From the NCBI GenBank assembly GCA_049668345.1, contig JBATJF010000172.1:1-32221 (forward strand): a stretch of DNA of 32,221 nt, given 5' to 3'. Positions within the stretch are counted from its first letter, which is position 1; each line of letters begins with the position of its first letter. This DNA comes from Gammaproteobacteria bacterium (GTDB taxonomy: Bacteria; Pseudomonadota; Gammaproteobacteria; UBA9214). Below the pieces are notes generated by a model, which saw only the letters and a list, made by a program, of their open reading frames with translations, was not told the origin of the DNA and made no database searches. This document shows positions 3,662 to 26,700 of this stretch, piece by piece. The translations under genes and the position numbers were made by a program.

Positions 3662-4846
3662 TCAGACCCGGTACGGCGCAAGCCGATCGACCAGGTATCC
3701 GGCGATCCGCTGCAGCAGCGAACCACCTGATGCAGGGCGGTCGATGTCCTGGTCCTGCACATATCCGGCATCAAATACGCGGTGTGTCCTGACGACCCCG
3801 TGCACGAATTCGAGTTTCCGCAGCGCCGGATCGGGCAGCGTAAACGGGTACAGGTCCGGGAGCCCCATGCTCCGGTTGAGACTGTTCAGGGCATGCGTCA
3901 GCGGTATCCAGTGACTGATGATGGTCTCGAAATCCTCGATACGATAGGCGTTGAAGCGGGGGTCGGCATGGTGAATGGTGCCGTCCGGCAGCTCGCGTCT
4001 GACCTGCACGCCGTAGTGCCCGGCAGTTTCCAGTGTGTCAATGATATGCAGGTAGTGCGCCCAGGACTCGGCCCAGTCCTCCCATGGGTGTGAGCTGGCG
4101 TAACGGGAGATATAGCGGCTCTGCCAGTCTCCCGGTGCGCCGGCCTGGTAATGGTTGTCGAGGGCCTGCGGATAGTTGATCCGTTCGTCACCGAACAGCT
4201 CGCGGAAGGCAGCCAGCGAAGGCGTGTTCCGGATCAGTTGGTTCCAGTAATAGTGCCCGCTTTCATGCCGGAAGTGCCCCAGCAGCGTCCGGTATTTTTC
4301 GTCCAGATCGACGCGGGACTGTTCGCGCCGGGCCGGATCCGCCTCATCGATGCTGATGACGATATGGCCGTTATCATGCCCGGTGATCACGTGTGACCCG
4401 GGCGGTGCATCGAGATCGGACATGAAGGAAAAGGCCAGTCCCCGGTCGGGGTCTTCCGTCCTGCTGTGCAGGGGCAGCCCGAGTTTCAGCAGGCTGTAGA
4501 TCAGGCGCCGCTTGCTGCGTTCCAGTCGATACCAGCGTTCCGCGAAGCCGGGCCGGGAAAGATTGGGGATGGTCTGGTTGAACTTGCAGGCGATACAGAA
4601 ACGCTGGCCGGAGTCGGCCGGGACCATCCAGTTGCAGACGGCGTGAGCCGCGTAGTTTTCGCACTTGCGGTAGCGGTTACCCACCGCCATGTCGGTGAGT
4701 GCCTTCCAGGTCCCGTCCGTAGCGGGTTCCAGCGCAGACACGCGCAGAATCTGCGGCAGCACCCCGAGTTCGTGGTTGCAGCGGGTGCAAATGCTGTTGT
4801 CGAAATAGACCGGGTTCTTACAGTGTTCGCAGTGGAAGGTTCTCAT
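3662..4846 (-). CDS. Zinc-ribbon + putative zinc metallopeptidase (Peptidase_Mx-like)
   Basis: N-terminal CxxC...CxxC (CEHCKNPVYFDNSICTRC), a further Cys cluster (CENYAAHAVCNW...FCIACKF) and an HExxH motif (FRHESGHYYW). It is the last gene of the minus-strand operon, 30 nt after the upstream stop. Confidence 0.75.
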   Translation of the reverse strand: MRTFHCEHCKNPVYFDNSICTRCNHELGVLPQILRVSALEPATDGTWKALTDMAVGNRYRKCENYAAHAVCNWMVPADSGQRFCIACKFNQTIPNLSRPGFAERWYRLERSKRRLIYSLLKLGLPLHSRTEDPDRGLAFSFMSDLDAPPGSHVITGHDNGHIVISIDEADPARREQSRVDLDEKYRTLLGHFRHESGHYYWNQLIRNTPSLAAFRELFGDERINYPQALDNHYQAGAPGDWQSRYISRYASSHPWEDWAESWAHYLHIIDTLETAGHYGVQVRRELPDGTIHHADPRFNAYRIEDFETIISHWIPLTHALNSLNRSMGLPDLYPFTLPDPALRKLEFVHGVVRTHRVFDAGYVQDQDIDRPASGGSLLQRIAGYLVDRLAPYRV

Positions 4847-4876: not shown

Positions 4877-5797
4877 TCAGCCGCCGGGTGCCGGTTGAGC
4901 CGCCGTTGTATCGGATTCCGGCAGGCGTTCCATGTCCACCGACACCCGTGGCCGGTGTCCCGGGTCGCCGCCGAACAATACGCCCTTGAGTGGCGTGACA
5001 TCGGCATAGTCCCGTCCCCAGGCCGTGGTGATGTGCTGGTCCAGCGGCACCCGGTTGTTGGTGGGGTCGAAGTCATGCCAGCCGACATCGGGCAGGTATA
5101 CCGAGAACCAGGCATGCGATTCGTCGGCCCCGCGCTGCTTGGCCTGGCCCGGTGGCGGCACGGTTTCCAGGTAGCCGCTCACATAGCGCGCCGCCAGCCC
5201 GAGACTGCGCAGGCAGGCGATCGCCAGGTGGGCAAAGTCCTGGCATACACCCCGCCGACTGGAGAGGACCTCGGTCAGGGGGGTGGAGACGGTGGAAAAT
5301 CCCGGGTCGTAGGTGAACTCGTGGTGGACGCGTGCCATCAGGTCGCGCACGGACTCCAGTAACGGCCGGCCGGGCGGGAACGACGGCGCCGCGTAACCGG
5401 CCAGTTCCTGACCGGTAGGTACCAGCGATGAATCGAGCACGAACTGACGGTTCTCGCGTGACGTGTCCGTGGCGGGTTCTGCCAGGCGCCTGCGCGCCTC
5501 GTCCCAGGGGATGTCAGCTTCCAGTACCAGCTGGCCGGTCCCGGGATTCAGCACGATTTCGCTGGTGGCGGTGACCGTGAGGGTCTGGTGCGGTTGCTGG
5601 ATGGAAAAATAGCTGACATGGTTGCCGAAGTAATCCGCGTGTTCCGCAAGATCCATCGGCAGCGGGTCGATCTGCAGGCGATGTCCCAGGCACTGCTGGG
5701 TGGCAAGGTTGCGCGGCCGCAGGTGGGCCAGGTTGTGGCACAGGCTGACGGTTATCCCGTAACGGTACTCTGTCTTGTGCACGACACGGTATTTCAT
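4877..5797 (-). CDS. Transglutaminase-like cysteine peptidase family protein (Bact_transglu_N + transglutaminase core)
   Basis: N-terminal MKYRVVHKTEYRY signature. The Cys-His-Asp core is intact (RGVCQDFAHL...ARYVSGY; SHAWFSVY; DFDPTN). The start overlaps the upstream stop by 4 nt (ATGA). Confidence 0.85.
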   Translation of the reverse strand: MKYRVVHKTEYRYGITVSLCHNLAHLRPRNLATQQCLGHRLQIDPLPMDLAEHADYFGNHVSYFSIQQPHQTLTVTATSEIVLNPGTGQLVLEADIPWDEARRRLAEPATDTSRENRQFVLDSSLVPTGQELAGYAAPSFPPGRPLLESVRDLMARVHHEFTYDPGFSTVSTPLTEVLSSRRGVCQDFAHLAIACLRSLGLAARYVSGYLETVPPPGQAKQRGADESHAWFSVYLPDVGWHDFDPTNNRVPLDQHITTAWGRDYADVTPLKGVLFGGDPGHRPRVSVDMERLPESDTTAAQPAPGG

Positions 5798-8355
5798 GAC
5801 TGTTCGGATTCTTCGTCGACCAGCTGGTAGGGCCGCTCGGCATGGGTGAAATAGGTTGCCGTGAGGGCATTGGAGGTTTCACCCAGGCGCTGGCCGAGCC
5901 CGGCGAGCAGGTTTTCGAGTCGCGGCCTGATACCGCCGTCCGCCTGCGCCAGTTCCTCTGCATTCGCCAGCTCGAGCTGGGTGGTGGCCTCGAGCACGAG
6001 CCGCATTTCCTGCTTGTAGGGACGCCGGTCCTGTCCCGGCAAGACGGCAAGATGCTGCCGCGCCGCGTTCAGCTGGTAGACGAGGGAGCGGCTGTTGCTT
6101 TCATCCAGCAGCAGCAGGTCCAGCGTGGCTTCCAGCTGCGGCCGGTTGCGGAAACGGCGTCGATAGAGGGAGAAGCTCTCGGTAACGGCCAGCACCGACT
6201 CCAGCAACAGGACCTCGATTTCCGGCGCCACGCGGCTGGTCAGCACGGCGCGCAGCAATGCGATCAGCAGCAGGGCGCGCTCGATGCGTCTGCCCAGGTT
6301 GAAGAAGTGCCAGCCCAGGTCACGGCTCATGCTTTCGCTGGCGGCGCCGGCGATGGCCATCAGCGCGGTGATGATGCGGTCCTGCGTGTCCTGCAGAAAC
6401 TGCAGATCGGTATGACCGCCTTGCGCCAGGCCGTCCAGCTCGTCACCGATGTCATTGAATACCCGCCGCGCGTCGCTGCTCACCAGGTTGCGTACGGCGT
6501 AGGCCGCGTTGAGGCAGTCCGACAGGTTGGCGGCCAGGGTTCCGGTGCGCCGCCGGTTGCAGATCAGGTCGACAAGCTCCGCCTGCGGCTCGGCCAGGCG
6601 CTGCTCGGCGCCGACCCCCGTGAAGCCGGGGTAGGTCATGCTCATGTGGGTCAGCCCCCGCAGCAGCATGGTCAGGGTCGTCTGGTAGACCGGGTCCGCC
6701 AGCTGCAGGGTTTCGTTGCGGCGTGTGTGGATGTTGCGGATCAGCCGGATCATGTCCTCGGCACGCTCGGCGTAGCGGGCCAGCCAGAACAGGTTTTCGG
6801 CGGCCAGCCCGGGCAGGGTCTCCTGCGATTGCGGGAAGACGCCCTTGCCCTGGGGCAGCAGCGTCACGATCTGCTCGGGTTCCGAGGCCAGCACCCAGGT
6901 GTCCTTGCTGACGGCGCCGGCCTGGTTGGACACTAACCGGCTGTCCGGTGTCTCGCCGACGCGGGTCAGTCCGCCCGGCATGACCGTGAAGCTGTCCTGG
7001 CCGGCGGCGAGGAAGGTGCGCAGCACGCTATGGCGCGGTTCCAGCCGGCCCGCATTCAGCGTCGGCGCCGAAGACGGTATCAGTCGTTCCTGACCGATGT
7101 ACTGGTGGGGCCGCGCCTTGATGCGCTCGCGCCATTCTGCCAGTCCTGTTGCATCGAGCTGGTCGCCGAACACCGGCCTGCCGCCCCGCTTGACCGGTCG
7201 CAGTACCAGGGTGGCGAGGTTGGCCAGTACGTAGTCACGTTCCCGTGGCTGTCCGCACCACCAGGTGGCGACCGAGGGCAGCCGCAGTTCCTGTCCCAGC
7301 AAATGCCTCGCCAGCCGGGGCAGGAAGGCCATCAGGCCGGGACTCTCCAGAATGCCCGCGCCGATGGTATTGGCGATGGCAACCCGTCCGCGACGCATCA
7401 CTTCCACCAGTCCGGGGACACCGAGCAGGGAGTCGGGGCGCAGTTCCAGCGGGTCACAGTAATGATCGTCGACGCGCCTGAGGATGACATCCACCGGGGC
7501 CAGCCCGCTGACGGACTTGAGCCAGACGCGACCATCGCGCACGGTCAGGTTGGCGCCCTCGATCAGGGTGTAATCGAGGTAGTTGGCAAGGTACAGGTGT
7601 TCGAAATAGGTCTCGTTGTGCGGCCCGGGGGTCATGATCACCACCCGCGGGTCCTCGCGCGCCTTTTCCGGCGCCAGGTTTGCCAGCGACTCGCGCAGGC
7701 GGCGGAAGAAGGGGGCCAGCCGGTGCGGGTGGGAATCGCGGAACAGGCTGGGTATCAGGCGCGACATGACGGTGCGGTTTTCCAGCGCATAGCCCATGCC
7801 CGAGGGGGCCTGGGTGCGGTCCTTGAGGATGCGGAACCGGCCATCATTGCCACGCACCAGGTCCGCGGCAAACAGGCTCAGTCCCGGTGGCCGGGCGGGC
7901 GGGGCGACCACGCAGGAACGCTGGAACCCGGGATCGCCGTACACCAGGTCCGGCGGGATCAGGCCCTTCCTGATCAGGCTGCAGGGACCGTAGAGATCCT
8001 GCAGGATCAGGTTGAGCAGTTCCGCCCGCTGCATCAGCCCGGACTCGATGCCGGCCCATTCGCTGCTGCTGATCAGCAGCGGCACCGGGTCGAGCTGCCA
8101 GGCCCGGTTGTGGCCGTCCTGCGCGCCGTAGACGTTGTAGGTGGCGCCGTCGCTGCGCAGCATGCGGACCGTGTCGCGCTGCCGCTGAGCGAGCACCTCG
8201 GGACCCATGGCATCCAGCGCGCTGATCAGGTACTGCCAGTGTTTGCGCACCGTGCCGTCTCCGGTGCACATCTCGTCGTAGCCTGACGGCGGCCGCGCGT
8301 AGGCCGGACAGGCTGCGCTGCGGTCGGGGGTGTCCATGGTTGGCGTGTCAGTCAC
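5794..8355 (-). CDS. Fused circularly permuted type-2 ATP-grasp (ex-DUF404/DUF407) + alpha-E (ex-DUF403) protein
   Basis: The N-terminal half parallels the 486-aa ATP-grasp at 13213..14673: VDVILRRVDDHYCDPLELRPDSLLGVPGL vs [29 protein letters not shown], and ETYFEHLYLANYL vs SAYFEHSYLAQQM. The C-terminal half carries the alpha-E signature (AAENLFWLARYAERAED vs VAEHIYWMSRYIERAEN). The start is GTG 8355 (8-nt overlap with the upstream gene) or ATG 8337. Confidence 0.85.
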   Translation of the reverse strand: MTDTPTMDTPDRSAACPAYARPPSGYDEMCTGDGTVRKHWQYLISALDAMGPEVLAQRQRDTVRMLRSDGATYNVYGAQDGHNRAWQLDPVPLLISSSEWAGIESGLMQRAELLNLILQDLYGPCSLIRKGLIPPDLVYGDPGFQRSCVVAPPARPPGLSLFAADLVRGNDGRFRILKDRTQAPSGMGYALENRTVMSRLIPSLFRDSHPHRLAPFFRRLRESLANLAPEKAREDPRVVIMTPGPHNETYFEHLYLANYLDYTLIEGANLTVRDGRVWLKSVSGLAPVDVILRRVDDHYCDPLELRPDSLLGVPGLVEVMRRGRVAIANTIGAGILESPGLMAFLPRLARHLLGQELRLPSVATWWCGQPRERDYVLANLATLVLRPVKRGGRPVFGDQLDATGLAEWRERIKARPHQYIGQERLIPSSAPTLNAGRLEPRHSVLRTFLAAGQDSFTVMPGGLTRVGETPDSRLVSNQAGAVSKDTWVLASEPEQIVTLLPQGKGVFPQSQETLPGLAAENLFWLARYAERAEDMIRLIRNIHTRRNETLQLADPVYQTTLTMLLRGLTHMSMTYPGFTGVGAEQRLAEPQAELVDLICNRRRTGTLAANLSDCLNAAYAVRNLVSSDARRVFNDIGDELDGLAQGGHTDLQFLQDTQDRIITALMAIAGAASESMSRDLGWHFFNLGRRIERALLLIALLRAVLTSRVAPEIEVLLLESVLAVTESFSLYRRRFRNRPQLEATLDLLLLDESNSRSLVYQLNAARQHLAVLPGQDRRPYKQEMRLVLEATTQLELANAEELAQADGGIRPRLENLLAGLGQRLGETSNALTATYFTHAERPYQLVDEESEQS

Positions 8356-11300
8356 ATCTGCCGCTGTGTCTCAGGTCCAGGGTGTAAGGATACTCCGGAT
8401 TGATCTCCTCCACAGGGGGTGCCATGGGTCCAGGGACATGGCCTTCGGGGAAAAACTTCGTCAGGGGTGCAAGCTCCGGCGGCGGGCGCAGCGGGCCCGT
8501 GCTGTGGCCATGGCCCCAGAAGCGGCTGATACGGCGCGATTCGGCCTCGTAGGCATTGACCGGGAACACGTCATAGTGGCGTCCACCGGGATGTGCCACG
8601 TGGTAGGTGCAGCCACCGATGGAACGGCCGTTCCAGGTATCGATGATATCGAAGACCAGCGGTGAATGAACGCCGATGGTGGGGTGCAGCGCCGAGGGTG
8701 GCTGCCAGGCGCGGAAGCGCACCCCTGCCACGTACTCGCCGTGGGTGCCGGTGCTTCGCAGCGGGACCCGGCGGCCGTTGCAGGCAACCACGTAGCGGCT
8801 TTCCGTCAGCCCGCTGACCTTGACCTGCAGCCGCTCCACCGAGGAGTCGACGAAGCGTGCCGTGCCCAGGTTGCTCATTTCCTCGCCCAGCACGTGCCAG
8901 GGCTCGAGCGCGGCATGCAGGTCGAGGCGGATGTCCTGCACGCTGACCGATCCGCAATGCGGGAAACGGAATTCCAGGAACGGCGCCAGCCATTCCAGCT
9001 GGAACGGGTAACCGGCGCGCTGCAGCTCGCACGCCACGTCTTTCATGTCGGCCCATACGTAGTGGGGCAGCATGAAGCGGTCATGCAGCGCGGTGCCCCA
9101 GCGCACCAGCCGGTGCCGGTAGGGCCGGTCCCAGAAGCGTGCAACCAGCGTGCGCAGCAGCAACATCTGCACCAGGCTCATCTGCGAATGCGGCGGCATT
9201 TCGAAGGCACGGAACTCCACCAGCCCCAGGCGTCCGGTCGACGAATTGGGCGAGTACAGCTTGTCGATACAGAACTCGGCGCGATGGGTGTTGCCGGTGA
9301 TATCCACCAGCAGGTTGCGCAGCAGCCGGTCCACCAGCCAGGGTTCGGCCACTTCACCGTCGGGCATTTGCTGGAAGGCGATTTCCAGCTCGTACAGGTT
9401 CTCGTCCCTGGCCTCGTCCACCCGCGGTGCCTGGCTGGTCGGGCCGATGAACATGCCGGAGAACAGCGTGGACAGGCCGGGGTGATGCTGCCAGTAGGTC
9501 AGCAGGCTGCGCAGCAGGTCGGGACGCCGCAGGAACGGACTGTCGGCCGGGGTGGCGCCGCCGAGGGTGACATGGTTGCCGCCGCCGGTGCCGGTATGGC
9601 GGCCGTCCAGCATGAACTTCTCCGTTCCCAGCCGGGACAGGCGCGCCTCGGCGTAGAGGATCTCGGTATTCTCCACCAGTTCCTGCCAGTCGTGTGCCGG
9701 GTGGATGTTGACCTCGATCACGCCCGGATCGGGGGTCACGGCCAGCTTGCGCATACGCCAGTCCCGCGGGGGTTCGTAGCCTTCGATGCGTACCGGCATC
9801 TGCAGCTCGGCCGCCGTCAGTTCCACCGCGGCGAGCAGGTCCAGGTAATGCTCCAGGTGGGTAAGCGGCGGCAGGAACAGGCGCAGCATGCCATCGCGGG
9901 CCTCGACACACAGGGCGGTATGAATCACCTCGATTCGCCGCCGCGCCTGCACGCCGTTGTCCGCCGGTTCCTGCTGCATGATTTCCGGGTGGGATTCCGG
10001 CGCCGCCTCGATGCGGCTGAAGCGGCGGGTCACCTCGCCGTAGTAGTCACCCAGCGCCGGGCGCGGTTCGAACAGGTCGCGTTCCGGTTCGATGTCGCGT
10101 TCCTCCTCGGCTATCCAGGGCAGGGCGTCGAGTGGCAGGCGCAGTCCCATGGGGGAATCGCCGGGCGCGAGGCACATATGCCCGCGGCGAAAGTGCCAGC
10201 TGCAGCTTTGCCAGCCGCTGCGGGAATCATCCCAGCGCAGCGGCAGGGCGAAGCCGGCGGGTTTGCCGAGGTCGCCGGCGAGCAGTTCCACCAGCCGGCG
10301 CCGTTCGTCCGGCTTCTTCAGGTCGGTGCCGAGCAGGTCCACGTTGGCCGGCTGGTCGCCTTCCTTCCACAGGTAGTAAAGGGTGTCTTCGTAGGCGGGG
10401 AGCAGGTAATGCCCGGGTACGCCGAGCCTGCGGGTCAGTGCTGCAGCGAACTGCTCCGCCTCGTCCGGTCCGCAGCCGTAGTCGACGCCGTCCCGGGCCA
10501 GCAGTTTGGGGTCGCGCCACACCGGGTTGCCGTCGACTCGCCAGAAGCAGTTCAGTGACCAGCGCGGCACGGGTTCGCCCGGGTACCACTTGCCCTGGCC
10601 GTAGTGCAGCAGGCCGCCGGGTGCGAAGCGCCCTTGCAGTCGCTGCAGCAGATCGCCGGCCAGCTCGCGCTTGTGTTTCCCGAGCGCGGCGTCATTCCAC
10701 TGCGCCGATTCCATGTCATCGATGGAAACGAACGTCGGTTCGCCGCCGAGCGTGAGCCGCACGTCACCGGCCGCCAGGTCGGCATCCACCTTGCGTCCCA
10801 GGGCCTGGATGGTCTCCCACTGTGACGCGGTGTACGGCTTGGTGACCCGCGGGTCCTCGTGGATGCGCTGCACCTCGTTATGGAAGCGGAATTCCACCTT
10901 GCATTTGCCGGTCGTGCCGGTAATCGGCGCGGCGCTGACGGGGTGGGGCGTGCAGGCGAGCGGGATATGGCCCTCGCCCGCGAACAGGCCCGAGGTCGGA
11001 TCGAGTCCCAGCCAGCCGGCGCCCGGTATAAACACCTCGGCCCAGGCATGCAGGTCGGTGAAGTCATGGTCGGTGCCGGCGGGACCCTCCAGCGGTTTTT
11101 CATCCGGTGTCAGCTGCAGCAGGTAGCCGGAAACAAAGCGCGCCGCCAGGCCGAGATGGCGCAGGATCTGCACCATCAACCAGGCGCTGTCGCGACAGGA
11201 ACCCAGTGCCTTGTCGAGGGTTGTCTCGCAGCTCTGGATGCCCGGTTCCATGCGGATGGTGTAGTCGATGTCACGCTGCAACCGCTGGTTGATAGCCACC

Positions 11301-11734
11301 AGGAAATTATTGATCTCCTGCTTCGAACGATCGACACCGGACAGCCACTTCAGCAACCGCGGGCCGTCCTCGGTGATCTCCAGATAAGGCGCCAGTTCCT
11401 TGCGCAAACCGGGCGTGTATTCGAAGGGGTAGTGCTCCGCATATTTTTCGACGAAAAAATCGAACGGGTTGATGACCACGATATCGGCCACCAGGTCCAC
11501 CTCGAAGGACAAGGTCCGCACCGGCTCCGGGAACACCAGGCGGGCGAGGTAGTTGCCGAAGGGATCCTGCTGCCAGTTGATGAAATGTTTCTCGGGCAGC
11601 ACCTTGAGCGAATAGGACTCGATCGGGCTGCGGGTATGCGGGGCCGGGCGCAGCCGGACGATATGCGGGGAGACCTCGACCGGCCGGTCAAAGCGGTACT
11701 CCGTCAAGTGATTGATAGCAACTCGGATAGCCAT
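8348..11734 (-). CDS. Large transglutaminase-like protein (Bact_transglu_N + transglutaminase core + DUF2126)
   Basis: N-terminal MAIRVAINHLTEYRF. Cys-His-Asp core is intact (LGSCRDSAWL...ARFVSGY; LHAWAEVF; GLDPTSG). A long C-terminal DUF2126 region contains GTGGGNHVTLGG. 1128 aa. Confidence 0.85.
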   Translation of the reverse strand: MAIRVAINHLTEYRFDRPVEVSPHIVRLRPAPHTRSPIESYSLKVLPEKHFINWQQDPFGNYLARLVFPEPVRTLSFEVDLVADIVVINPFDFFVEKYAEHYPFEYTPGLRKELAPYLEITEDGPRLLKWLSGVDRSKQEINNFLVAINQRLQRDIDYTIRMEPGIQSCETTLDKALGSCRDSAWLMVQILRHLGLAARFVSGYLLQLTPDEKPLEGPAGTDHDFTDLHAWAEVFIPGAGWLGLDPTSGLFAGEGHIPLACTPHPVSAAPITGTTGKCKVEFRFHNEVQRIHEDPRVTKPYTASQWETIQALGRKVDADLAAGDVRLTLGGEPTFVSIDDMESAQWNDAALGKHKRELAGDLLQRLQGRFAPGGLLHYGQGKWYPGEPVPRWSLNCFWRVDGNPVWRDPKLLARDGVDYGCGPDEAEQFAAALTRRLGVPGHYLLPAYEDTLYYLWKEGDQPANVDLLGTDLKKPDERRRLVELLAGDLGKPAGFALPLRWDDSRSGWQSCSWHFRRGHMCLAPGDSPMGLRLPLDALPWIAEEERDIEPERDLFEPRPALGDYYGEVTRRFSRIEAAPESHPEIMQQEPADNGVQARRRIEVIHTALCVEARDGMLRLFLPPLTHLEHYLDLLAAVELTAAELQMPVRIEGYEPPRDWRMRKLAVTPDPGVIEVNIHPAHDWQELVENTEILYAEARLSRLGTEKFMLDGRHTGTGGGNHVTLGGATPADSPFLRRPDLLRSLLTYWQHHPGLSTLFSGMFIGPTSQAPRVDEARDENLYELEIAFQQMPDGEVAEPWLVDRLLRNLLVDITGNTHRAEFCIDKLYSPNSSTGRLGLVEFRAFEMPPHSQMSLVQMLLLRTLVARFWDRPYRHRLVRWGTALHDRFMLPHYVWADMKDVACELQRAGYPFQLEWLAPFLEFRFPHCGSVSVQDIRLDLHAALEPWHVLGEEMSNLGTARFVDSSVERLQVKVSGLTESRYVVACNGRRVPLRSTGTHGEYVAGVRFRAWQPPSALHPTIGVHSPLVFDIIDTWNGRSIGGCTYHVAHPGGRHYDVFPVNAYEAESRRISRFWGHGHSTGPLRPPPELAPLTKFFPEGHVPGPMAPPVEEINPEYPYTLDLRHSGRCD

Positions 11735-11798: not shown

Positions 11799-12647
11799 TC
11801 AGCTGTCCGTCCGGATGCTGAGATCAAAGTGCATTTCGGAATTCCCGGCAGCGCCGTAACAGGACCCCTCTATCGGCAGGGTCCAGGCCGGACTGCAGGC
11901 CGCGGTCAGCGCCACGTGCGCATCCGCCACGGCGGTACCGTGGCCGGGGTCGTAGCCGCGCCAGCCGCCGCCGGGGAGGTAGACCTCCGGCCAGGCGTGC
12001 AGGTAACGGCGTTTCCCGCGCGTTTCCGGACGGGCCTGGTAGCCGCTGACGAAACGCGCCGCGAGGCCCTGCTCCCGGCAGACTGCGATAAACAGCAGCG
12101 TCAGGTCGCGGCATGCACCCCGGCGCTGCGCCAGGGTAAGTTCGGGGCTTTGCGGTGCACCCTGGTCCCGAATCGACTTTTCGCATGTGGTGTGCAGGAA
12201 GCGGCTCAGGGTGTCGAGAAAAGCCAGCGTGTTGTTGCCCGCCTGTCTGGCCAGATCGGCGGCCAGCTCGATGACCGCGGGTGCGGCTGTGCCGCAGGCA
12301 CGACAGGCTGTCAGCGCCGGGACCTCGTGCTGGCTGTAGCAAACGGGCAGAGCGGTTGCCGGGGTGTCCACGATGTAGTCGAAGGGATTGTCCCGCAGCG
12401 TGACGACGCGGGCGGTGCTGTCGATACGCAGTTCGACCGTCGTGCCGGTAAACCACAGGCGTCTGACCAGGTTGCCTTCGGCATCGAGGACGTTCGATTG
12501 CAGCACAGGTTCCGGGGTGATTGTGCAGTCATAGTCGAGCACCTGCTGGCTGCCGTCGGTACGCGGCAGCAGGCGCACGATATGCGGACCGAGCCGGACC
12601 GGACTCTGGTAACGGTAAGTGGTGATATGCCGGATTTCAAATTGCAC
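11799..12647 (-). CDS. Transglutaminase-like cysteine peptidase family protein; first gene of the minus-strand operon
   Basis: GTG start; (M)QFEIRHITTYRY N-terminus. Triad is intact (RGACRDLTLL...ARFVSGY; LHAWPEVY; GYDPGHG). There are 64 nt to the next gene. Confidence 0.8.
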   Translation of the reverse strand: MQFEIRHITTYRYQSPVRLGPHIVRLLPRTDGSQQVLDYDCTITPEPVLQSNVLDAEGNLVRRLWFTGTTVELRIDSTARVVTLRDNPFDYIVDTPATALPVCYSQHEVPALTACRACGTAAPAVIELAADLARQAGNNTLAFLDTLSRFLHTTCEKSIRDQGAPQSPELTLAQRRGACRDLTLLFIAVCREQGLAARFVSGYQARPETRGKRRYLHAWPEVYLPGGGWRGYDPGHGTAVADAHVALTAACSPAWTLPIEGSCYGAAGNSEMHFDLSIRTDS

Positions 12648-12685
12648 AAGCGAAGGTCTTCATCTGCAGTCCCTGGTATCGGTGA

Positions 12686-12701
12686 AGCAAGAAGTACGCC
12701 A
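12686..12701 (-). promoter_or_regulatory. Possible sigma-54 (-24/-12) promoter for the minus-strand operon (partial match)
   Basis: The minus strand reads TGGCGTACTTCTTGCT. GG and GC are at the canonical spacing and TTGCT is intact, with two mismatches in the -24 box (GT for AC). It lies ~40 nt upstream of GTG 12647. Confidence 0.3.
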
Positions 12702-13083
12702 TTTCTGCCGTTCCTGTCCTTCCCGTGCCGCCGGACGGGATATCAGGAGATTGCGCGCCGGCTGTGGCGGTGTTTCATGCCCTGCACCCTGTTGCCGCGG
12801 CTGACCGGGAACCTGCCGGGCGGGTTCAGGTGCAAGTCTGGTGCGGAAACGGGGATTTTTCATGATCCGTGCGTCATGCTGGTGCATGTCAGGCGCTGCT
12901 GGCATCCCTGCTGCAGGCGGCGGCCACAGTACGCGGCTTGATCCGTGGCCAGTGCCGGCAGCGGTGCGCGTCCGCCAAGGTGCTGTATTTCAATGATGGC
13001 TGCTTCCGCCTGGCATGATTTCGTGCGCCATGGCGAAAAGAATGACGCAACAGCGGCTGCACCGGCCGGCTGGCTCGCCCGGG

Positions 13084-13099
13084 TGGCACGTTGTTTGCT
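13084..13099 (+). promoter_or_regulatory. Sigma-54 (RpoN) -24/-12 promoter
   Basis: TGGCACGTTGTTTGCT is a full match to TGGCACG-N4-TTGCW. The -12 GC sits 115 nt upstream of ATG 13213 of the ATP-grasp gene. Confidence 0.6.
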
Positions 13100-13212
13100 G
13101 TGATGTGAGATATACGGTGGCAGCGATACCGACGACTTGCATCATCCGGTAGCCGTGACCAGCGGTTCGCTATACACCTTTCCCTGACACGGCAGGCACG
13201 ATCCGGCGGGAC

Positions 13213-14673
13213 ATGAGTGATATGACAATTCGGTGGCAAGACTATTCAAGCGGCGACTCCTACGACGAATTGATTACGCCGGCCGGGCATGCGCGCAAGG
13301 CAGCCCGGCAAGCGATACGGTATATCAGTTCGCTGAGCGATGCGGAATGGACCGAGCGCCGGGATGCCGCGGAACTGGCCATGCGCGTCATGGGTATTAC
13401 CTTCACCGTCTATACCAACGAAAGCGGCATCGACCGGGTCTGGCCGTTCGATATCATTCCACGCATCATTCCCGCCCGCGAGTGGCGCACCACCGAGGCC
13501 GGCCTGATCCAGCGTGCGACCGCACTGAACAAATTCATAGCCGATATCTACGGCGAACAGCGCATCATCAGGGACAAGGTCTTTCCGGGTGAGCTGCTGG
13601 CGGAGTCGGTCAATTTCCGCAAGCAGTGCGTCGGCATCAGGCCGCCTCTCGATGTCTGGGCACATATCTGCGGCAGTGACCTGGTACGCGACAGCGACGG
13701 GAAATTCTACGTCCTGGAAGACAACCTGCGTGTCCCGTCGGGCGTCTCCTATATGCTGGAGAACCGCCTGGTCATGAAACGTGTCTTTCCCGAATTGTTC
13801 GAGGAAGTCAGCATCCTGCCGGTAGACGGCTATCCTGCCCGCCTGTTCGATACCCTGGCCTCGCTGTCGCCGCGCCCGGCCGACTACCCGACGGTCGTTG
13901 TCCTGTCACCGGGCATCTATAACTCCGCCTATTTCGAGCATTCCTACCTGGCACAGCAAATGGGTGTGGAACTGGTGGTCGGCAGGGACCTGGTGGTGAT
14001 GGATGACGACTGTGTCTACCTGCGCACCGTCGGCGGGCTGGAGCGGGTCGATGTCATTTACCGCCGGGTCGACGACATGTTCCTCGATCCCGAAGTCTTC
14101 CGTCCGGACTCCATGCTCGGCGTGCCCGGCCTGATGCGGGCCTGGCGTGCGGGCAATGTGGGCATTGCCAATGCCCCCGGCGCCGGCGTTGCCGATGACA
14201 AGGTTGTCTATGCCTTTGTGCCGGACATGATCCGCTACTACCTGGACGAAGAGCCGATCCTGCCCAATGTCGAGACCTACCTGTGCATGGACGACAGGCA
14301 GCGCGACTACGTGCTCGCCAATCTCGACAAGCTGGTGGTCAAGCCCGCCAATGAATCGGGCGGCTACGGCATGCTGGTCGGACCGTTTTCCAGCAAGGCG
14401 GAGCGGCAGAAGTTTGCGGAACTGATCAAGGCGAAACCGCGTAATTACATCGCCCAGCCGACACTGGCGCTGTCGACAACACCGACGCTGTGTGACGGTC
14501 ACATCGAGTCGCGTCATATCGACCTGCGCCCGTTTATCCTGTCCGGGCAGACCAGCCATGTCACGCGCGGCGGCCTGACGCGGGTTGCGCTCAAGAAAGG
14601 CTCGCTGGTGGTGAATTCATCACAGGGTGGTGGCAGCAAGGATACCTGGGTCGTTGACATGGAGAGAACCTGA
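13213..14673 (+). CDS. Circularly permuted type-2 ATP-grasp protein (ex-DUF404/DUF407)
   Basis: Family-typical blocks: FDIIPRIIPAREW..GLIQRATALNKFIADIYG, SAYFEHSYLAQQMG, VVKPANESGGYGMLVGP. It is paralogous to the N-terminal half of the 5794..8355 product. Confidence 0.85.
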   Translation: MSDMTIRWQDYSSGDSYDELITPAGHARKAARQAIRYISSLSDAEWTERRDAAELAMRVMGITFTVYTNESGIDRVWPFDIIPRIIPAREWRTTEAGLIQRATALNKFIADIYGEQRIIRDKVFPGELLAESVNFRKQCVGIRPPLDVWAHICGSDLVRDSDGKFYVLEDNLRVPSGVSYMLENRLVMKRVFPELFEEVSILPVDGYPARLFDTLASLSPRPADYPTVVVLSPGIYNSAYFEHSYLAQQMGVELVVGRDLVVMDDDCVYLRTVGGLERVDVIYRRVDDMFLDPEVFRPDSMLGVPGLMRAWRAGNVGIANAPGAGVADDKVVYAFVPDMIRYYLDEEPILPNVETYLCMDDRQRDYVLANLDKLVVKPANESGGYGMLVGPFSSKAERQKFAELIKAKPRNYIAQPTLALSTTPTLCDGHIESRHIDLRPFILSGQTSHVTRGGLTRVALKKGSLVVNSSQGGGSKDTWVVDMERT

Positions 14674-14675
14674 TC

Positions 14676-15656
14676 ATGTTGCTTTCAAGTGTTGCCGAGC
14701 ATATCTACTGGATGTCCCGTTATATCGAACGGGCCGAGAACACCGCGCGCATCATCCTCGTGCACAACAACCTGATGCTCGATATGCCGCGCAGGATTGC
14801 CATCGGCTGGGACCCGCTGGTCTACATCATGGGCTCCATGGAACCGTTCTGTGAGCGCTACGAGGAAGCCAGTGAGCGCAACGTGGTGCGTTTCCTGGTC
14901 TCCGACAGGAACAATTCCAGCTGCATCACCTGCTCACTGGGCCAGGCGCGCGAGAACCTGCGGACCATCCGGGCCATCGTGCCGCGAGCGGCCTGGGAGA
15001 CCCTGAACGACCTGTATGAATACACCCGGGAAAATGCTGCCAGCGGCATCAGCCGCCGCGGTCGTTACGCCTACATGAAACGGGTGGTCGATTCCTGCCA
15101 GCTGCTGGCCGGGAAACTGTCCGGGACCATGAGCCATGACATGGCCTACGAGTTCCTGCGCATCGGCCGCTTCATGGAGCGTGCGGACATGACCAGTCGT
15201 GTCATCGACGTGCGCGCCACCAACCTGCTGCCGCAACAGACCGATGAACTCAAGCCCTTCGACGATATCCAGTGGAAAAGCGTGCTGGACCTGCTGATGG
15301 CCTACCAGATGTACCGGCGCCGGGTGCACGTCGGCGTGCGCGGCAGGGAGGCCCTGCGCTTCCTGCTGCAGGAGGAGGAGTTCCCGCGTTCGATACATTT
15401 CTGCCTGGCCGAGGTCGGCCACTGTCTGCGCCGTCTGCCCGGCAACGAGTCGGTGCTCCGGGTGCTCGGCCGCGCGCAGCGCATGGCGCAGGATTTCAGT
15501 GTCGGTGACAACGTCACCGCCGGTTTGAATGATTTCATCAACGAACTACAATTGGTACATACCGAGTTGCATGAACAGCTCGTCGCAAGCTATTTCGATG
15601 TGCCGCAGGAAGCCGCATCACTGCATGCGCCCACCCGTCTCGCTGCAACCGGTTAA
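14676..15656 (+). CDS. Alpha-E domain protein (ex-DUF403)
   Basis: MLLSSVAEHIYWMSRYIERAENTARI signature. It starts 2 nt after the ATP-grasp stop and is paralogous to the C-terminal half of the fused 853-aa protein. Confidence 0.85.
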   Translation: MLLSSVAEHIYWMSRYIERAENTARIILVHNNLMLDMPRRIAIGWDPLVYIMGSMEPFCERYEEASERNVVRFLVSDRNNSSCITCSLGQARENLRTIRAIVPRAAWETLNDLYEYTRENAASGISRRGRYAYMKRVVDSCQLLAGKLSGTMSHDMAYEFLRIGRFMERADMTSRVIDVRATNLLPQQTDELKPFDDIQWKSVLDLLMAYQMYRRRVHVGVRGREALRFLLQEEEFPRSIHFCLAEVGHCLRRLPGNESVLRVLGRAQRMAQDFSVGDNVTAGLNDFINELQLVHTELHEQLVASYFDVPQEAASLHAPTRLAATG

Positions 15657-15729
15657 TTGCCTCCGGATCTCTTTCAGGGCACCGGCACCGGTGACCTTGC
15701 TGCAGGGGCTGCGGTACACATGAACTGAC

Positions 15730-18700
15730 ATGGCCATGATCACGCATGACGGCAGCGGTCTGTATCAACCGGGATTCGAGCATGACGGTTGCGGCTTCGG
15801 CCTGATTGCGCAAATGGACGGCAAGCCGGGGCATGCGCTGGTGCACCGGGCGATCCGCGCGCTGTCACGCCTGACCCACCGCGGGGCGGTTGCGGCGGAT
15901 GGCAAGAGCGGTGACGGCTGCGGGCTGCTGATGAAGCTGCCGCATGATTTTCTGCATGCCGTGGCACTCGCCGACGGTATCACCCTGTCATCCCGCTATG
16001 CCGTGGGGATGCTGTTTCTCAACCGGGACCCGGAGCGTGCCGGGGCGGCGCGCTGGAGACTGGAGTTCGAACTCGAGGCGCAGGACCTCGCAGTGGCCGG
16101 CTGGCGTAGCGTGCCCGTCGAGCCGGATGCCTGCGGAGCACGGGCTCTGGAGAGCCTGCCTCTGATCGAGCAGGTGTTCGTCAATGCACCGCCCGGGCTG
16201 CCCGGGGACGAGCTGGAACGACGCCTGTACATCGCCCGGCGCCGTGCCAGGAAGGCCATCAAGGACGAGGACAGTACGTTTTACGTCGCCAGTCTCTCCA
16301 GCCAGGTGATCTGCTACAAGGGTCTGGTCATGCCGCATAACCTGCCGGTGTTCTACCCCGACCTGTGTGATGAACGCCTGGCGTCCTCGCTGTGCGTGTT
16401 TCACCAGCGGTTTTCCACCAACACCTGGCCGGAATGGCGGCTGGCACAACCGTTCCGCTATCTCGCGCATAACGGTGAAATCAATACCATCCAGGGCAAT
16501 CGCAACTGGGCCCGCGCGCGCAGCCACAAGTTCGAGTCGCCGCTGATCCCCGACATGGACGCGATTCGCCCCTGGGTGTCGATGTCGGGCTCCGATTCCT
16601 GCAGCCTGGACAACATGCTGGAGGCGCTGCTGGCCGGCGGCATGGATATCTTCCTGGCCATGCGCCTGCTGATCCCGCGCGCCTGGCAGAACATCGAGAC
16701 CATGGATCCCGACCTGCGGGCATTTTACGAATACCATTCCATGCACATGGAACCGTGGGACGGACCGGCGGGGATCGTGCTGACGGATGGCCGCTATGCC
16801 GCCTGCCTCATGGATCGCAATGGCCTGCGCCCGGCGCGCTACGTCATCACCCGTGACCGCTGTATCACCCTGGCATCGGAGATCGGGGTGACCGAACACG
16901 AACCGCAGGACGTCGTTGCCAGGGGGCGGCTGTCGCCCGGCGACATGATGGCGGTGGACACCCGGACCGGCCGCTTGCTGACGCCGGGCATGATCGAGGA
17001 TGACCTCAAAGGCCGCTGGCCCTGCCGCAAGTGGCTGCAGCAGCACGCCGTACGCCTCGAGTCACGCCGCGATGAGGAGGTGCGCTACTGCCGGCAGTCG
17101 GCGCCCGGACAACTCAGGATCCGGCAGAAGCAGTTCCAGGTGACGCTGGAGGAACTCGACCAGGTGCTGCGTGTGCTGGCCGAGGGCGGGCAGGAAGCGA
17201 TCGGCTCCATGGGAGACGATACTCCCATGCCGGTCCTGTCACGACAGGTCCGCTCGCTGTTCGACTATTTCCGTCAGCAGTTTGCACAGGTCACCAATCC
17301 GCCCATCGATCCCCTGCGCGAGCAGATCGTCATGTCACTGGAGACCTGTTTCGGTGTCGAACGCAACCTGTTTGTCGAGGACCCGCAGCATGCCGCGCGC
17401 CTGATGGTCAACAGCCCGGTCCTGTCGGGAAGCAAGTTCAACCAGCTGCTGGAACAGTCGGATCCGCGCTACCGGCATGCCCGCATCGACCTGAACTACG
17501 ACCGCACGCTGGACCTGCGCAGCGCCATCCATGCACTGGCCGAACGGGCCGTCGAACAGGTGCGAAGCGGCAAGTGCATCCTGGTCCTTTCGGACCGGGA
17601 CATCGCGCAGGACCGCCTGCCCGTGCATGCGCTGCTGGCCACCGGCGCGATACACCACCGGCTGATCGAGGCCGGACTGCGCTGCGATGCCAACCTGGTG
17701 GTCGATACCGGCACCGCGCGCAATCCGCACGAATTCGCCGTGCTGATCGGCTTCGGCGCAACGGCCATCCATCCCTGGCTGGCCTACCAGTGCATCGCCG
17801 ACCTGTTTCGCGGCGGGCAGGCGGACGCTGCCGGCGATACCGTGACCGGGGCACTCCATTCCTACCGGCGCGGTATCAACAAGGGCCTGTACAAGATCCT
17901 TTCCAAGATGGGGATCTCCACCATCACGAGCTACCGGGGCGCGCAACTCTTCGAGTCCATCGGCCTGCATCGCGATGTCGTCGATCTGTGTTTCAGCGGT
18001 ACGCCCTGCCGCCTGCAGGGCGCCGGGTTCGAGGAACTCGAGGCGGACCAGCGGCGCCTGGCGGACGCGGCCTGGGACGGACGCCGGGACATCGAGCCGG
18101 GCGGGCGGCTGAAATTCATCGCCGGCGGCGAGTTCCATGCCTTCAACCCGGATGTCGTCACGACCCTGCACCAGGCCGTGGCCAGCGGCGAGTACCGGGA
18201 CTACCGGCGCTATGCGGCGCTGATCAACCAGCGGCCGCCGCTCGTGCTGCGGGACCTGCTGGGAGTGCGTGACGATCTCGAGCCGGTGCCGATCGAGGCG
18301 GTCGAGCCGGTCGAGGAGATTGTCAGGCGTTTCGAGACCGGCGCGATGTCACTGGGCGCCCTGTCGCCGGAGGCGCACGAGACCCTGGCGATCGCCATGA
18401 ATCGACTCGGTGGCCGTTCCAACTCGGGTGAGGGTGGCGAGGACCCGCAACGCTTCGGCACCGAGCGTGTTTCCAGGATCAAGCAGGTGGCATCCGGCCG
18501 CTTCGGCGTGACGCCGCATTACCTGGTCAATGCGGACGTGCTGCAGATCAAGATCGCGCAGGGTGCCAAGCCCGGTGAAGGCGGTCAACTTGCCGGCCAG
18601 AAGGTGAACGAACTGATTGCCCGCCTGCGGCATGCCGAGGTCGGTACACCGCTGATATCCCCGCCGCCGCATCACGACATCTATTCCATCGAGGACCTGG

Positions 18701-20205
18701 CGCAGCTGATCTTCGATCTCAAGCAGGTCAACCCGGCGGCGATGGTATCCGTCAAGCTGGTCTCCGAGGCCGGCGTCGGCACCATTGCCGCGGGCGTCGC
18801 CAAGGCCTATGCGGACCAGATCACAGTCTCGGGCTACGATGGTGGTACCGGCGCCAGTCCGCTGTCGTCGGTGAAATACGCCGGCAGTCCCTGGGAGCTG
18901 GGTCTGCGCGAGACACACCAGATCCTGCGTGCCAACGACCTGCGCCAGCGTGTGCGGCTGCAGGTGGACGGCGGCATCAAGACCGGCCTCGATGTCATCA
19001 AGGCTGCGCTGCTGGGTGCGGAGAGTTTCGGCTTCGGCACGACGCCGCTGATCGTGCTGGGCTGCAAGTACCTGCGTATCTGCCACCTGAACAATTGTGC
19101 GACCGGCGTGGCGACCCAGGACCCCGTGTTGCGCAGTCAGCACTACCGCGGCGAGGCGGAGAAGGTGATGACCTTTTTCCGCTGGGTGGCGCAGGAGGTG
19201 CGTGAATGGATGGCACGTCTTGGCGTGCGCCGTTTCGATGAACTCATCGGCCGCACGGACCTGCTGCGCCTGCTGCCCGGGGCAACCGGCAAGCAGCGCC
19301 GGCTCGACCTGCAGCCGCTGCTGTATGACGCCGACGTCGCCGCGGACAAGCCGCGCTATTGCCTGCAGGCGCGCAACGATTCATTCGACAAGGGGGCGAT
19401 GGCCGAACAGATGCTCAGCGACATGCTGCCGCTGATCGAAGCGGGTGAGGGCGGTGAATTCAGTTACCGTATTCGCAACGACAACCGCTCCATCGGTGCG
19501 CGCGTGTCCGGTGAAATCGCGCGTCGCCATGGCAATAACGGCCTCGAGCATCATCCACTGGTGGTGCGCCTGCAGGGGACCGCCGGCCAGAGCCTCGGGG
19601 TGTGGAATGCCGGCGGTCTGCACCTGTACCTGGAAGGGGATGCCAACGATTATGTCGGCAAGGGCATGGCCGGCGGCAAGATCGTCGTCTATCCAGCGTA
19701 CGCCAGCGATTATCCAAGCCAGGAGCATGTCATCCTGGGGAATACCTGCCTGTACGGCGCCACCGGCGGGCGCCTGTATGCAGCGGGCCAGGCGGGAGAG
19801 CGTTTCGCCGTGCGCAATTCAGGAGCGGTTGCCGTGGTCGAGGGTGCCGGCGATCACTGCTGCGAATACATGACCGGCGGAATCGTTGCGGTGCTTGGTG
19901 ATACCGGTTTCAACTTCGGCGCGGGGATGACTGGCGGCTTCGCGTTCGTGTACGATCGCAACAATGGATTCGTCGATCACTATAACCATGAACTGGTGGA
20001 CATCCACCACATCGACACCGAGCAGACCGAGAACCACCGTAACCTGCTGTACCGGATGCTCGGCGATTATGTTGCGGATACCGGCAGCCGATGGGGGCAG
20101 ACCTTGCTGGACGAGTTCCCGGAGCATGCCAGGCATTTCTGGCTGGTGAAGCCAAGGACCGCGAAAATGGATGCCCTGGCGGATGCCATGGTGCAGGTGG
20201 CCTAG
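15730..20205 (+). CDS. gltB: Glutamate synthase (GOGAT) large subunit
   Basis: 1491 aa. Ntn-amidotransferase catalytic Cys after a short propeptide (FEHDGCGFGLIAQMDG). Colinear with GltB through the central, FMN and C-terminal beta-helix domains. It starts 73 nt after the alpha-E stop on the same strand. Confidence 0.95.
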   Translation: MAMITHDGSGLYQPGFEHDGCGFGLIAQMDGKPGHALVHRAIRALSRLTHRGAVAADGKSGDGCGLLMKLPHDFLHAVALADGITLSSRYAVGMLFLNRDPERAGAARWRLEFELEAQDLAVAGWRSVPVEPDACGARALESLPLIEQVFVNAPPGLPGDELERRLYIARRRARKAIKDEDSTFYVASLSSQVICYKGLVMPHNLPVFYPDLCDERLASSLCVFHQRFSTNTWPEWRLAQPFRYLAHNGEINTIQGNRNWARARSHKFESPLIPDMDAIRPWVSMSGSDSCSLDNMLEALLAGGMDIFLAMRLLIPRAWQNIETMDPDLRAFYEYHSMHMEPWDGPAGIVLTDGRYAACLMDRNGLRPARYVITRDRCITLASEIGVTEHEPQDVVARGRLSPGDMMAVDTRTGRLLTPGMIEDDLKGRWPCRKWLQQHAVRLESRRDEEVRYCRQSAPGQLRIRQKQFQVTLEELDQVLRVLAEGGQEAIGSMGDDTPMPVLSRQVRSLFDYFRQQFAQVTNPPIDPLREQIVMSLETCFGVERNLFVEDPQHAARLMVNSPVLSGSKFNQLLEQSDPRYRHARIDLNYDRTLDLRSAIHALAERAVEQVRSGKCILVLSDRDIAQDRLPVHALLATGAIHHRLIEAGLRCDANLVVDTGTARNPHEFAVLIGFGATAIHPWLAYQCIADLFRGGQADAAGDTVTGALHSYRRGINKGLYKILSKMGISTITSYRGAQLFESIGLHRDVVDLCFSGTPCRLQGAGFEELEADQRRLADAAWDGRRDIEPGGRLKFIAGGEFHAFNPDVVTTLHQAVASGEYRDYRRYAALINQRPPLVLRDLLGVRDDLEPVPIEAVEPVEEIVRRFETGAMSLGALSPEAHETLAIAMNRLGGRSNSGEGGEDPQRFGTERVSRIKQVASGRFGVTPHYLVNADVLQIKIAQGAKPGEGGQLAGQKVNELIARLRHAEVGTPLISPPPHHDIYSIEDLAQLIFDLKQVNPAAMVSVKLVSEAGVGTIAAGVAKAYADQITVSGYDGGTGASPLSSVKYAGSPWELGLRETHQILRANDLRQRVRLQVDGGIKTGLDVIKAALLGAESFGFGTTPLIVLGCKYLRICHLNNCATGVATQDPVLRSQHYRGEAEKVMTFFRWVAQEVREWMARLGVRRFDELIGRTDLLRLLPGATGKQRRLDLQPLLYDADVAADKPRYCLQARNDSFDKGAMAEQMLSDMLPLIEAGEGGEFSYRIRNDNRSIGARVSGEIARRHGNNGLEHHPLVVRLQGTAGQSLGVWNAGGLHLYLEGDANDYVGKGMAGGKIVVYPAYASDYPSQEHVILGNTCLYGATGGRLYAAGQAGERFAVRNSGAVAVVEGAGDHCCEYMTGGIVAVLGDTGFNFGAGMTGGFAFVYDRNNGFVDHYNHELVDIHHIDTEQTENHRNLLYRMLGDYVADTGSRWGQTLLDEFPEHARHFWLVKPRTAKMDALADAMVQVA

Positions 20206-20247: not shown

Positions 20248-20483
20248 GGCCACGGAATCCACGGAATCCACGGAAGAACACGGATATAAATGCAGTTGCA
20301 GGGTGCGTTTTACACACCGCGAACGGTGCACGAAGTGCACCCTACGAAAAAGAGTGGCCACGGAATCCACGGAAGAACACGGAAATATAAATGCAGTTGC
20401 AGGGTGCGTTTTACGCACCGTGAACGGTGCACGAAGTGCACCCTACGAAAAAGAACGGCCACGGAATCCACGGAAGAACACGG
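20248..20483. repeat. Tandem repeat array, 2.3 copies of a 101-108 bp unit with twin hairpins
   Basis: Copy 1 is 20248-20355, copy 2 is 20356-20456, and a partial copy 3 is 20457-20483. The unit starts with 9-bp sub-repeats CCACGGAA(T/G), x3 in copy 1 and x2 in copy 2. It contains hairpins GGTGCG-TTTTA-CGCACC and GGTGCAC-GAA-GTGCACC (20325-20341 and 20426-20442). The array lies between the convergent gltB and lipoprotein genes. Confidence 0.9.
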
Positions 20484-20514
20484 CAAGAATGCCCGTTCGG
20501 GCAGCAGTCCCGGA

Positions 20515-20937
20515 TCAGTTTTCAACGGCACCATTATCGATCCAGACCCGGATGGTCTCGATCTCTTCGGCACTGAGGGGTGCCTTGCCATGCGGCATGG
20601 AGATTGTCAGGTTGTCTTTGGAGGAAATCAGGTTATACAGCGAACTGGTCATGGCCGAACCCGGATGGATGACCGGTCCGAACCGGGTGTCTTTCATCAG
20701 CGATGCGTAGGAGTCCACCTGAAGGCCGGTTGTTTCGGCAGCCGGCTTTCCGGCTGCATGACATTCAGCACAATGCTTTTGCAGGATGGGGGCCACATCA
20801 TCCGCATAGCTCACCGGCTGTGACTGCGACGGCTCTGCCTTTTGTAACTGCAGCTGCCCTGCCTTGTCGTCATCGCAGGCCGCCAGGCTCGCGGCGATTG
20901 CCAGTAACGCGGCGAGCGGCATGGCTCGATTGTTCAT
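20515..20937 (-). CDS. c-type cytochrome domain lipoprotein (PSCyt1-like, single CxxCH)
   Basis: Signal peptide plus lipobox (MNNRAMPLAALLAIAASLAAC) and heme motif CAECH. Domain-like pattern VAPILQKHCAECH...MPHGKAPLSAEEIETIRVWIDNGA. GGAGGGG lies 7 nt upstream of ATG 20937; the ORF track starts 12 codons earlier. Confidence 0.65.
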   Translation of the reverse strand: MNNRAMPLAALLAIAASLAACDDDKAGQLQLQKAEPSQSQPVSYADDVAPILQKHCAECHAAGKPAAETTGLQVDSYASLMKDTRFGPVIHPGSAMTSSLYNLISSKDNLTISMPHGKAPLSAEEIETIRVWIDNGAVEN

Positions 20938-22869: not shown

Positions 22870-24402
<1,533 letters not shown>

Positions 24403-26156: not shown

Positions 26157-26700
26157 ACACTCCGGTTTATTGACGCATGCCTTGGTGCCGTGCCACACCC
26201 GCCCGCTGCGTGGAAAACCGCCGCCTGCAGCATGGTTTACCCGGGTTATGCCGGGCAGTGGCCAGCTTGCATACGCCATCAGGCACTGGACCATCGTGCG
26301 TTTTGCGGCAGGTATCCCTCCCGGGCAGGCGTGGGCTTCCGGGACCTGCCCTGTTCTCAGCAACATCTGTGCCATGTGCTGCCGTTGAAAAAAGGTATTC
26401 AAAACAGTGACTTGTCTGGCATCGGTCAGGAGCTGCTGCACCAGAATCCGCTGCATTGCCGTGCGTACGCCTCGTTATAGTGCAGAAACCGGGCTATCCG
26501 TCTGCACCCTGCCCGCACGGTCCGAGGGTCCGGCAGGGCATGAAGTGCAGTACATCAGGGGTGGTCCGTCCCTCGGCTGGAGCCGGCCGGGACAATGGCG
26601 TGCGGATCATGTGTCCGGAATGGAGATGGCGGGCGCGCCGGATACCGGCGTCTGATGCGGGAGAAGGTGTGGCGGGGTGGCAGGGCGGCTTGCCTGCGCG

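Follow-up and report, generated by a model that had tools for sequence, protein, structure and literature searches.

The intergenic region between two divergent gene groups in a 32,221-nt stretch of DNA (the window) from an uncultured gammaproteobacterium, with a genome from metagenomes, probably contains two back-to-back sigma-54 promoters that are both activated by a trans-encoded activator, most likely NtrC; we give this reading a rough probability of 0.72. The plus-strand element at 13084–13099, called P(+), is very probably a real sigma-54 promoter and one member of such a pair. P(+) would drive an ATP-grasp gene and an alpha-E gene, with possible read-through into gltB, while the minus-strand promoter, P(-), would drive an operon that encodes, in order, a transglutaminase, a DUF2126-transglutaminase, a fused ATP-grasp/alpha-E protein, another transglutaminase and a peptidase. 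The elements and genes are listed by coordinates and strand.

13084..13099, plus strand: P(+), predicted sigma-54 (-24/-12) promoter; exact consensus, kept in the close relatives L001–L006 and found in the sense orientation only at ortholog loci
12686..12701, minus strand: P(-), divergent sigma-54-like promoter, TGGCGTACTTCTTGCT; an island of conservation when the window is aligned with L001 and L002
12870..12886, no strand assigned: NtrC-like site TGCGTCATGCTGGTGCA; two mismatches to the enteric TGCACCA-N3-TGGTGCA
12829..12845, no strand assigned: GGTGCAAGTCTGGTGCG, the second conserved element upstream, whose two GGTGC half-sites point in the same direction; kept in the window, L001 and L002
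13222..14673, plus strand: circularly permuted (CP) type 2 ATP-grasp, the first plus-strand gene; Pfam CP_ATPgrasp_2, E = 6e-168; homologs of 483 aa
14676..15656, plus strand: alpha-E domain gene, 2 nt past the ATP-grasp stop; Pfam Alpha-E, E = 7e-80
15730..20205, plus strand: gltB, glutamate synthase large subunit, 73 nt past alpha-E; Pfam GATase_2, Glu_syn_central, Glu_synthase and GXGXG
11799..12647, minus strand: transglutaminase-like, 282 aa, the first gene behind P(-); Pfam Bact_transglu_N and Transglut_core
8348..11734, minus strand: large transglutaminase/DUF2126, 1128 aa; Pfam, and gene order in relatives
5794..8355, minus strand: fused CP-ATP-grasp/alpha-E, 853 aa, its start overlapping the end of the preceding gene by 8 nt; Pfam
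4877..5797, minus strand: transglutaminase-like, 306 aa, with a 4-nt overlap with the preceding gene; Pfam
3662..4846, minus strand: zinc-ribbon/Peptidase_Mx; Pfam

The plus strand reads TGGCACGTTGTTTGCT at 13084–13099 and agrees with TGGCACG-N4-TTGCW at all specified positions, as the initial annotation had claimed, and its GG and GC doublets are exactly 10 nt apart. It is the sole exact match on either strand of the 32-kb window, where 0.01 is expected by chance, and a match appeared in one of 100 dinucleotide-preserving shuffles. The motif is sense-oriented and lies 123 nt before ATG 13222, within a divergent intergenic region of 565–574 bp whose ORFs have no Pfam hit and whose plus strand yielded no sigma-70-like promoter. 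Two distances in the initial annotation proved correct: the -12 GC (13097–13098) is 115 nt upstream of ATG 13213, and the gap measured to that codon is 565 bp (12648–13212). An ORF does open at ATG 13213, which had been taken as the start, but the real start is almost certainly ATG 13222, because the homologs are 483 aa long and position 13213 reads ATC in L001, whose ATP-grasp protein is 99% identical to that of the window. The predicted P(+) transcription start lies near 13110, and the start codon at 13222 therefore gives a leader of about 112 nt. This leader has no Rfam match in a check for riboswitches and structured leaders, and its predicted fold is no more stable than those of shuffled sequences (z = +1.6). 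Sediment metatranscriptome runs X18 and X21 provided short, sparse contigs, 90–99% alike, that lie on coding sequence and leave 12400–13337 uncovered. The rpoN gene is absent from the window.

We quantified the conservation of P(+) in one scan of 185,579 species genomes, which returned 80 loci with ATP-grasp orthologs that are 64–99% identical. Counting motifs with the GG/GC core and at most two mismatches within 300 nt upstream of the ATP-grasp gene, we found a sense sigma-54 motif in 42 of the 80 loci and an antisense motif in none; the control, 104 kb of adjacent coding sequence, contained one match. The full consensus is matched in six loci. The per-position counts across the motifs give T-GG-C-a-c/t-G, four variable nucleotides and T-T-GC-a/t, which is the pattern read by sigma-54, with the spacer free. 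At closer range, P(+) is an invariant island between diverged flanks when the window is aligned with L001 (bin MFD02832.bin.1.93) and with L002, the more diverged relative; proteins related to those of the window are labelled Thiohalobacterales or Thiogranum. The motif bearers comprise the window clade, Shewanella, Neptuniibacter, Marinomonas, Zhongshania, Halieaceae, Porticoccaceae, Cycloclasticus and Methyloglobulus; the motif was not found at 38 of the 80 loci, including those of Nitrosomonas, Pseudoxanthomonas and Pseudohongiellaceae. Motif conservation in orthologous regions supports the promoter reading. That the P(+) motif is instead a chance match, or is conserved for a reason other than promoter function, is a reading that draws on the RNA contigs, which cover coding sequence only. 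We consider it very improbable, given the low chance expectation, strand-specific and correctly placed conservation across 42 genomes, and the restriction of that conservation to the positions read by sigma-54 while the spacer varies.

The second promoter of the proposed pair, P(-), ends 39 nt before the transglutaminase start codon, GTG 12647, with a predicted transcription start near 12675. Its GG/GC spacing is correct and its TTGCT is perfect, with three mismatches in the -24 half; the pattern TGGC-N7-TTGCT occurs four times in the window versus 0.40 expected. A minus-strand motif is kept in all six close relatives (L001–L006) of the seven-genome clade, at a constant distance to the divergent start codon. 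The separation of P(+) and P(-) is exactly 382 nt in the window, L001 and L002, while the L003–L006 equivalents of P(-), TGGCKTRAWTMTTGCT, are 342–424 bp from P(+) and ~41–45 nt before the divergent gene. Behind P(-), the minus-strand genes overlap or are separated by intergenic gaps of 64 nt or less, and the Peptidase_Mx gene is likely the last gene of the unit. The ATP-grasp/alpha-E unit, which had been described as an orphan system, is one arm of a split system, and the minus-strand arm has its own sigma-54-like promoter.

Several further motifs and genes were observed beside these arrangements. In L003–L006, the divergent gene encodes a conserved 416-aa protein (78–93% identical, L033 included) that is absent from the window and has no Pfam hit and no PDB sequence match. 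Its gene lies directly behind a sigma-54 motif, beside the ATP-grasp gene, in five genomes: L004 (2202–3452, minus strand), L006 (2102–3355, minus strand), L033 (2731–3969, plus strand), L003 and L005. In L033, this gene and the ATP-grasp gene share a strand, with the gene for the 416-aa protein first and TGGCATGCAGTTTGCT ahead of it. On a Ralstonia solanacearum megaplasmid (CP047137.1; L166, 5821–5936), back-to-back sigma-54-like motifs, CGGCACATCCCTTGCT on the minus strand and CGGCACGAACCTTGCT on the plus strand, each lie ~65 nt before divergent Peptidase_Mx-like and DUF2126 genes, the latter annotated as 'IMP dehydrogenase'. Within the window, the fused ATP-grasp/alpha-E gene contains TGGCGAGGCATTTGCT (7298–7313, minus strand), which has sigma-54-like spacing and could be a chance occurrence or an internal promoter.

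We now consider the activator. The initial annotation had stated that the window contains no bEBP gene, and a GAFTGA scan together with Pfam scans confirms this; GAFTGA-containing ORFs were found neither in the window nor in 79 of the 80 ortholog loci. Such a lack of linked activator genes fits control in trans by a global regulator. Between the two promoters, the NtrC-like site at 12870–12886 has two mismatches, for which 0.17 sites are expected per window. In the window, L001, L002, L004 and L006, it is placed 213–215 nt ahead of the plus-strand motif, and in L003 and L005 the NtrC-like site is at -80/-81 from this motif. The half-sites TGGTGC/GCACCA reach 6.9 per kb in the DNA flanked by the two promoters in the seven genomes, compared with 1.1 per kb in the remainder of the same sequences, a ~6-fold enrichment whose nominal Poisson p of 3e-9 overstates independence because the genomes are related. 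The candidate sites are ~230–270 nt before the predicted P(+) start, which is unusually far, and only one of them nears a full palindrome; they are nearer to P(-), at ~160–200 nt from its predicted start. In the DNA that separates the promoter from the candidate activator sites, a search for IHF sites gave no good consensus match, only an AT-rich patch, TATTTCAATGA (~12991–13001), that has a similar position in relatives.

A different activator repeat, GGCCAC-N17-GTGGCC at 12923–12951, had been suggested earlier. It is not conserved: its right arm reads GAGGTC in the 99% relative L001, the repeat is absent in L002, and we discarded it as an activator site. The regions upstream of the motif in the more distant genomes yielded no NtrC-like site in common, and the consensus scan was positive only in the window clade. 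A de novo search for a shared palindrome across 43 motif-bearing loci gave nothing convincing, the best dyad being CATG-N11-CATG in nine loci.

In enteric NtrC/sigma-54 promoters, for example glnAp2 (Reitzer and Magasanik 1986; Ames and Nikaido 1985), the activator sites are strong pairs at about -100 to -140. The window resembles this type in combining a predicted -24/-12 promoter with upstream candidate sites of the TGCACCA-N3-TGGTGCA type; at glnAp2-type promoters, such sites act by DNA looping. It differs in having one near-palindrome and several half-sites that are common to two divergent promoters.

A closer comparison is available in Burkholderia cenocepacia H111, where the cluster I35_5080-83 (BCAM1233-1236) encodes DUF404/407, DUF403, a transglutaminase and a large transglutaminase. 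Under nitrogen limitation, its expression is 6–9.4-fold lower when ntrC is mutated, and the cluster appears in the list of targets common to NtrC and sigma-54 (PMC5491218). We located the true B. cenocepacia ortholog cluster through its DUF2126 protein. In L163, a B. cenocepacia strain other than H111, the matching cluster has AGGCACGTTCCTTGCA ~36–45 nt before the ATP-grasp gene and an NtrC-like site, TGCACCGTTGTGGTGCG (of the TGCACC-N4-TGGTGCG type), 80 nt before AGGCACGTTCCTTGCA. The Burkholderia and window clusters share their gene families (CP-ATP-grasp, alpha-E, transglutaminase and large transglutaminase) and, as seen in this other strain, a sigma-54 motif just ahead of the ATP-grasp gene and an NtrC-like site further upstream. 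In contrast, the Burkholderia genes are all on one strand, with one promoter and the site at -80, whereas the window cluster has two divergent arms, two promoters, sites 214–255 nt from P(+), and gltB behind alpha-E. Nitrogen-type, activator-dependent control, as the initial annotation had proposed, is supported by the conserved NtrC-like sites and by this B. cenocepacia ortholog locus, whose cluster is published as dependent on both NtrC and sigma-54 (PMC5491218).

The best ATP-grasp matches in B. cenocepacia (L161) and Ralstonia (L162) were rejected as orthologs; they belong to paralogous small clusters of ATP-grasp, alpha-E and a small transglutaminase, plus a peptidase in Ralstonia (R. solanacearum). 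No sigma-54 motif was found near the ATP-grasp gene of L161, and L162 has only a two-mismatch motif, ~420 nt upstream and inside a ComEC gene. Judging from these loci, sigma-54 control in these species seems to be specific to the DUF2126-type cluster.

A second system is the ATP-grasp/alpha-E/transglutaminase operon of Pseudomonas putida KT2440 (PP_2688-PP_2685), which resembles the window cluster in these genes and differs from it by carrying an Anbu proteasome-like gene, absent in the window, and by lacking the DUF2126 protein. PP_2685-2688 are induced by nitrogen limitation, an effect attributed to NtrB/NtrC (PMC8050072, PMC7801951) and also cited in Anbu structural papers, and the PP_2688 promoter shows a 3.7-fold reporter response (PMC8050072). 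In one study, an rpoN mutation did not abolish induction of the homologous P. putida operon (PMC7801951), a caveat for the sigma-54 reading. These domains co-vary with domains of urea metabolism in marine metagenomes (PMC3597751).

A real sigma-54 promoter could also respond to another enhancer-binding protein, with a signal that is not nitrogen status. Such an arrangement would be compatible with the distant relatives, where the promoter is kept and no common NtrC-type site is found, and with the window's candidate sites, which are imperfect and far from P(+). We nevertheless regard it as unlikely, because the conserved site is closely like that of the NtrC-dependent B. cenocepacia ortholog promoter (PMC5491218), the orthologous operons are nitrogen-responsive in two species, and no dedicated activator gene is linked to the cluster.

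According to the preferred reading, activation of both promoters by NtrC, nitrogen limitation would lead to phosphorylated NtrC, encoded elsewhere in the genome, that binds at 12829–12845 and 12870–12886. NtrC would then oligomerise, loop the DNA and, at the expense of ATP, convert the closed sigma-54 polymerase complexes on either side into open ones, so that divergent transcripts would start at ~13110 on the plus strand and ~12675 on the minus strand. The analysis itself shows the motifs and how they are conserved, the conserved placement of the NtrC-like site, and the order of the genes; we infer the binding of sigma-54, the identity of the activator, the nitrogen signal, the start sites and the transcript extents.

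The extent of the plus-strand transcript bears on gltB, whose co-transcription with the ATP-grasp/alpha-E genes we place at about even odds. The 73-nt gap between alpha-E and gltB has no terminator-like hairpin with a T-run, and read-through from P(+) into gltB is therefore possible. However, a sigma-70-like TTGAAT-16-TACAAT at 15525–15552 and a conserved 14-bp inverted repeat, CACCGGCACCGGTG, in the gap at 15680–15693 suggest that gltB is regulated separately. The L002 version of the repeat is a perfect palindrome, CACCGGTACCGGTG, despite diverged flanks, and the element resembles an operator to which a dimeric gltB regulator would bind. Both elements favor the alternative that the plus-strand transcript stops after alpha-E, with gltB transcribed solely from its own promoter and P(+) irrelevant to glutamate synthase; so does the position of gltB, which is found behind alpha-E only in the window, L001 and L002. 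We hold this alternative to be slightly less probable than a coin toss, as it must contend with a gap that has no terminator-like structure and with a sigma-70-like site inside coding sequence, where its conservation is uninformative. Downstream of gltB is a 177-aa ORF (20290–20823) without Pfam hits. Further right, the genes for a DeoC aldolase, a GltD-like protein, PEPCK and a Hox-type hydrogenase are all on the minus strand. The only GltD-like gene (22870–24309, minus strand) and gltB (15730–20205, plus strand) are unlinked and on opposite strands.

Gene order in the relatives bears on the origin of the two arms. The alpha-E gene is behind the ATP-grasp gene in 79 of the 80 loci, the exception being L047, which ends ~100 nt past the ATP-grasp gene. 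The usual order is the motif, ATP-grasp, alpha-E and then a DUF2126-transglutaminase, a Peptidase_Mx or a fused ATP-grasp/alpha-E gene. The DUF2126 gene is directly behind alpha-E in most other genomes and on the opposite strand in the window clade, while Peptidase_Mx homologs are behind alpha-E in several relatives. One tentative scenario, which we hold to be less likely than not, is that an ancestral single operon, with a sigma-54 promoter followed by ATP-grasp, alpha-E and DUF2126-transglutaminase, was split into divergent arms that share one NtrC enhancer. Each arm would have kept or acquired its own sigma-54 promoter, and the plus-strand arm would have captured gltB, co-transcribed under nitrogen limitation. 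If so, gltB would be expressed together with the ATP-grasp/alpha-E genes and apart from the gltD-like gene, and the product of the ligase system would be tied to glutamine/glutamate metabolism.

Taken by itself, P(+) is sound but ordinary, because the literature already describes NtrC/sigma-54 control of the cluster in Burkholderia and Pseudomonas, and a single promoter call has little to surprise a specialist. The motif conservation suggests that sigma-54 control of the cluster extends beyond these two genera and is kept across many marine and sediment Gammaproteobacteria, among them uncultured sulfur-oxidiser-like lineages, and that it outlasts the rearrangement into two divergent arms. These observations lend weight to the idea that the system is part of the nitrogen-starvation response; the timing of its expression is one of few handles on the biochemical role of the CP-ATP-grasp/alpha-E/transglutaminase system. 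Defined promoter fragments are now at hand for reporter tests.

Two minor observations concern other parts of the window. The only other NtrC-like palindrome with two mismatches, TGCACCGCCCGGGTGCA at 1401–1417, begins one base past the first base of the start codon of a second DUF2126 paralog (1400–3619, plus strand, 739 aa) that has no transglutaminase N-terminal part; no sigma-54 motif was found near this site. On the pckA side, a sense motif was found at none of 80 distant homolog loci (55–67% identical). In the window, the probable start of pckA is ATG 26156, the listed ORF start at 26456 being too early. A near-consensus sigma-54 motif, TGGCACAGATGTTGCT (26359–26374, minus strand), lies ~200 nt upstream of this probable start, with a TGGTGCA half-site just upstream of the motif.
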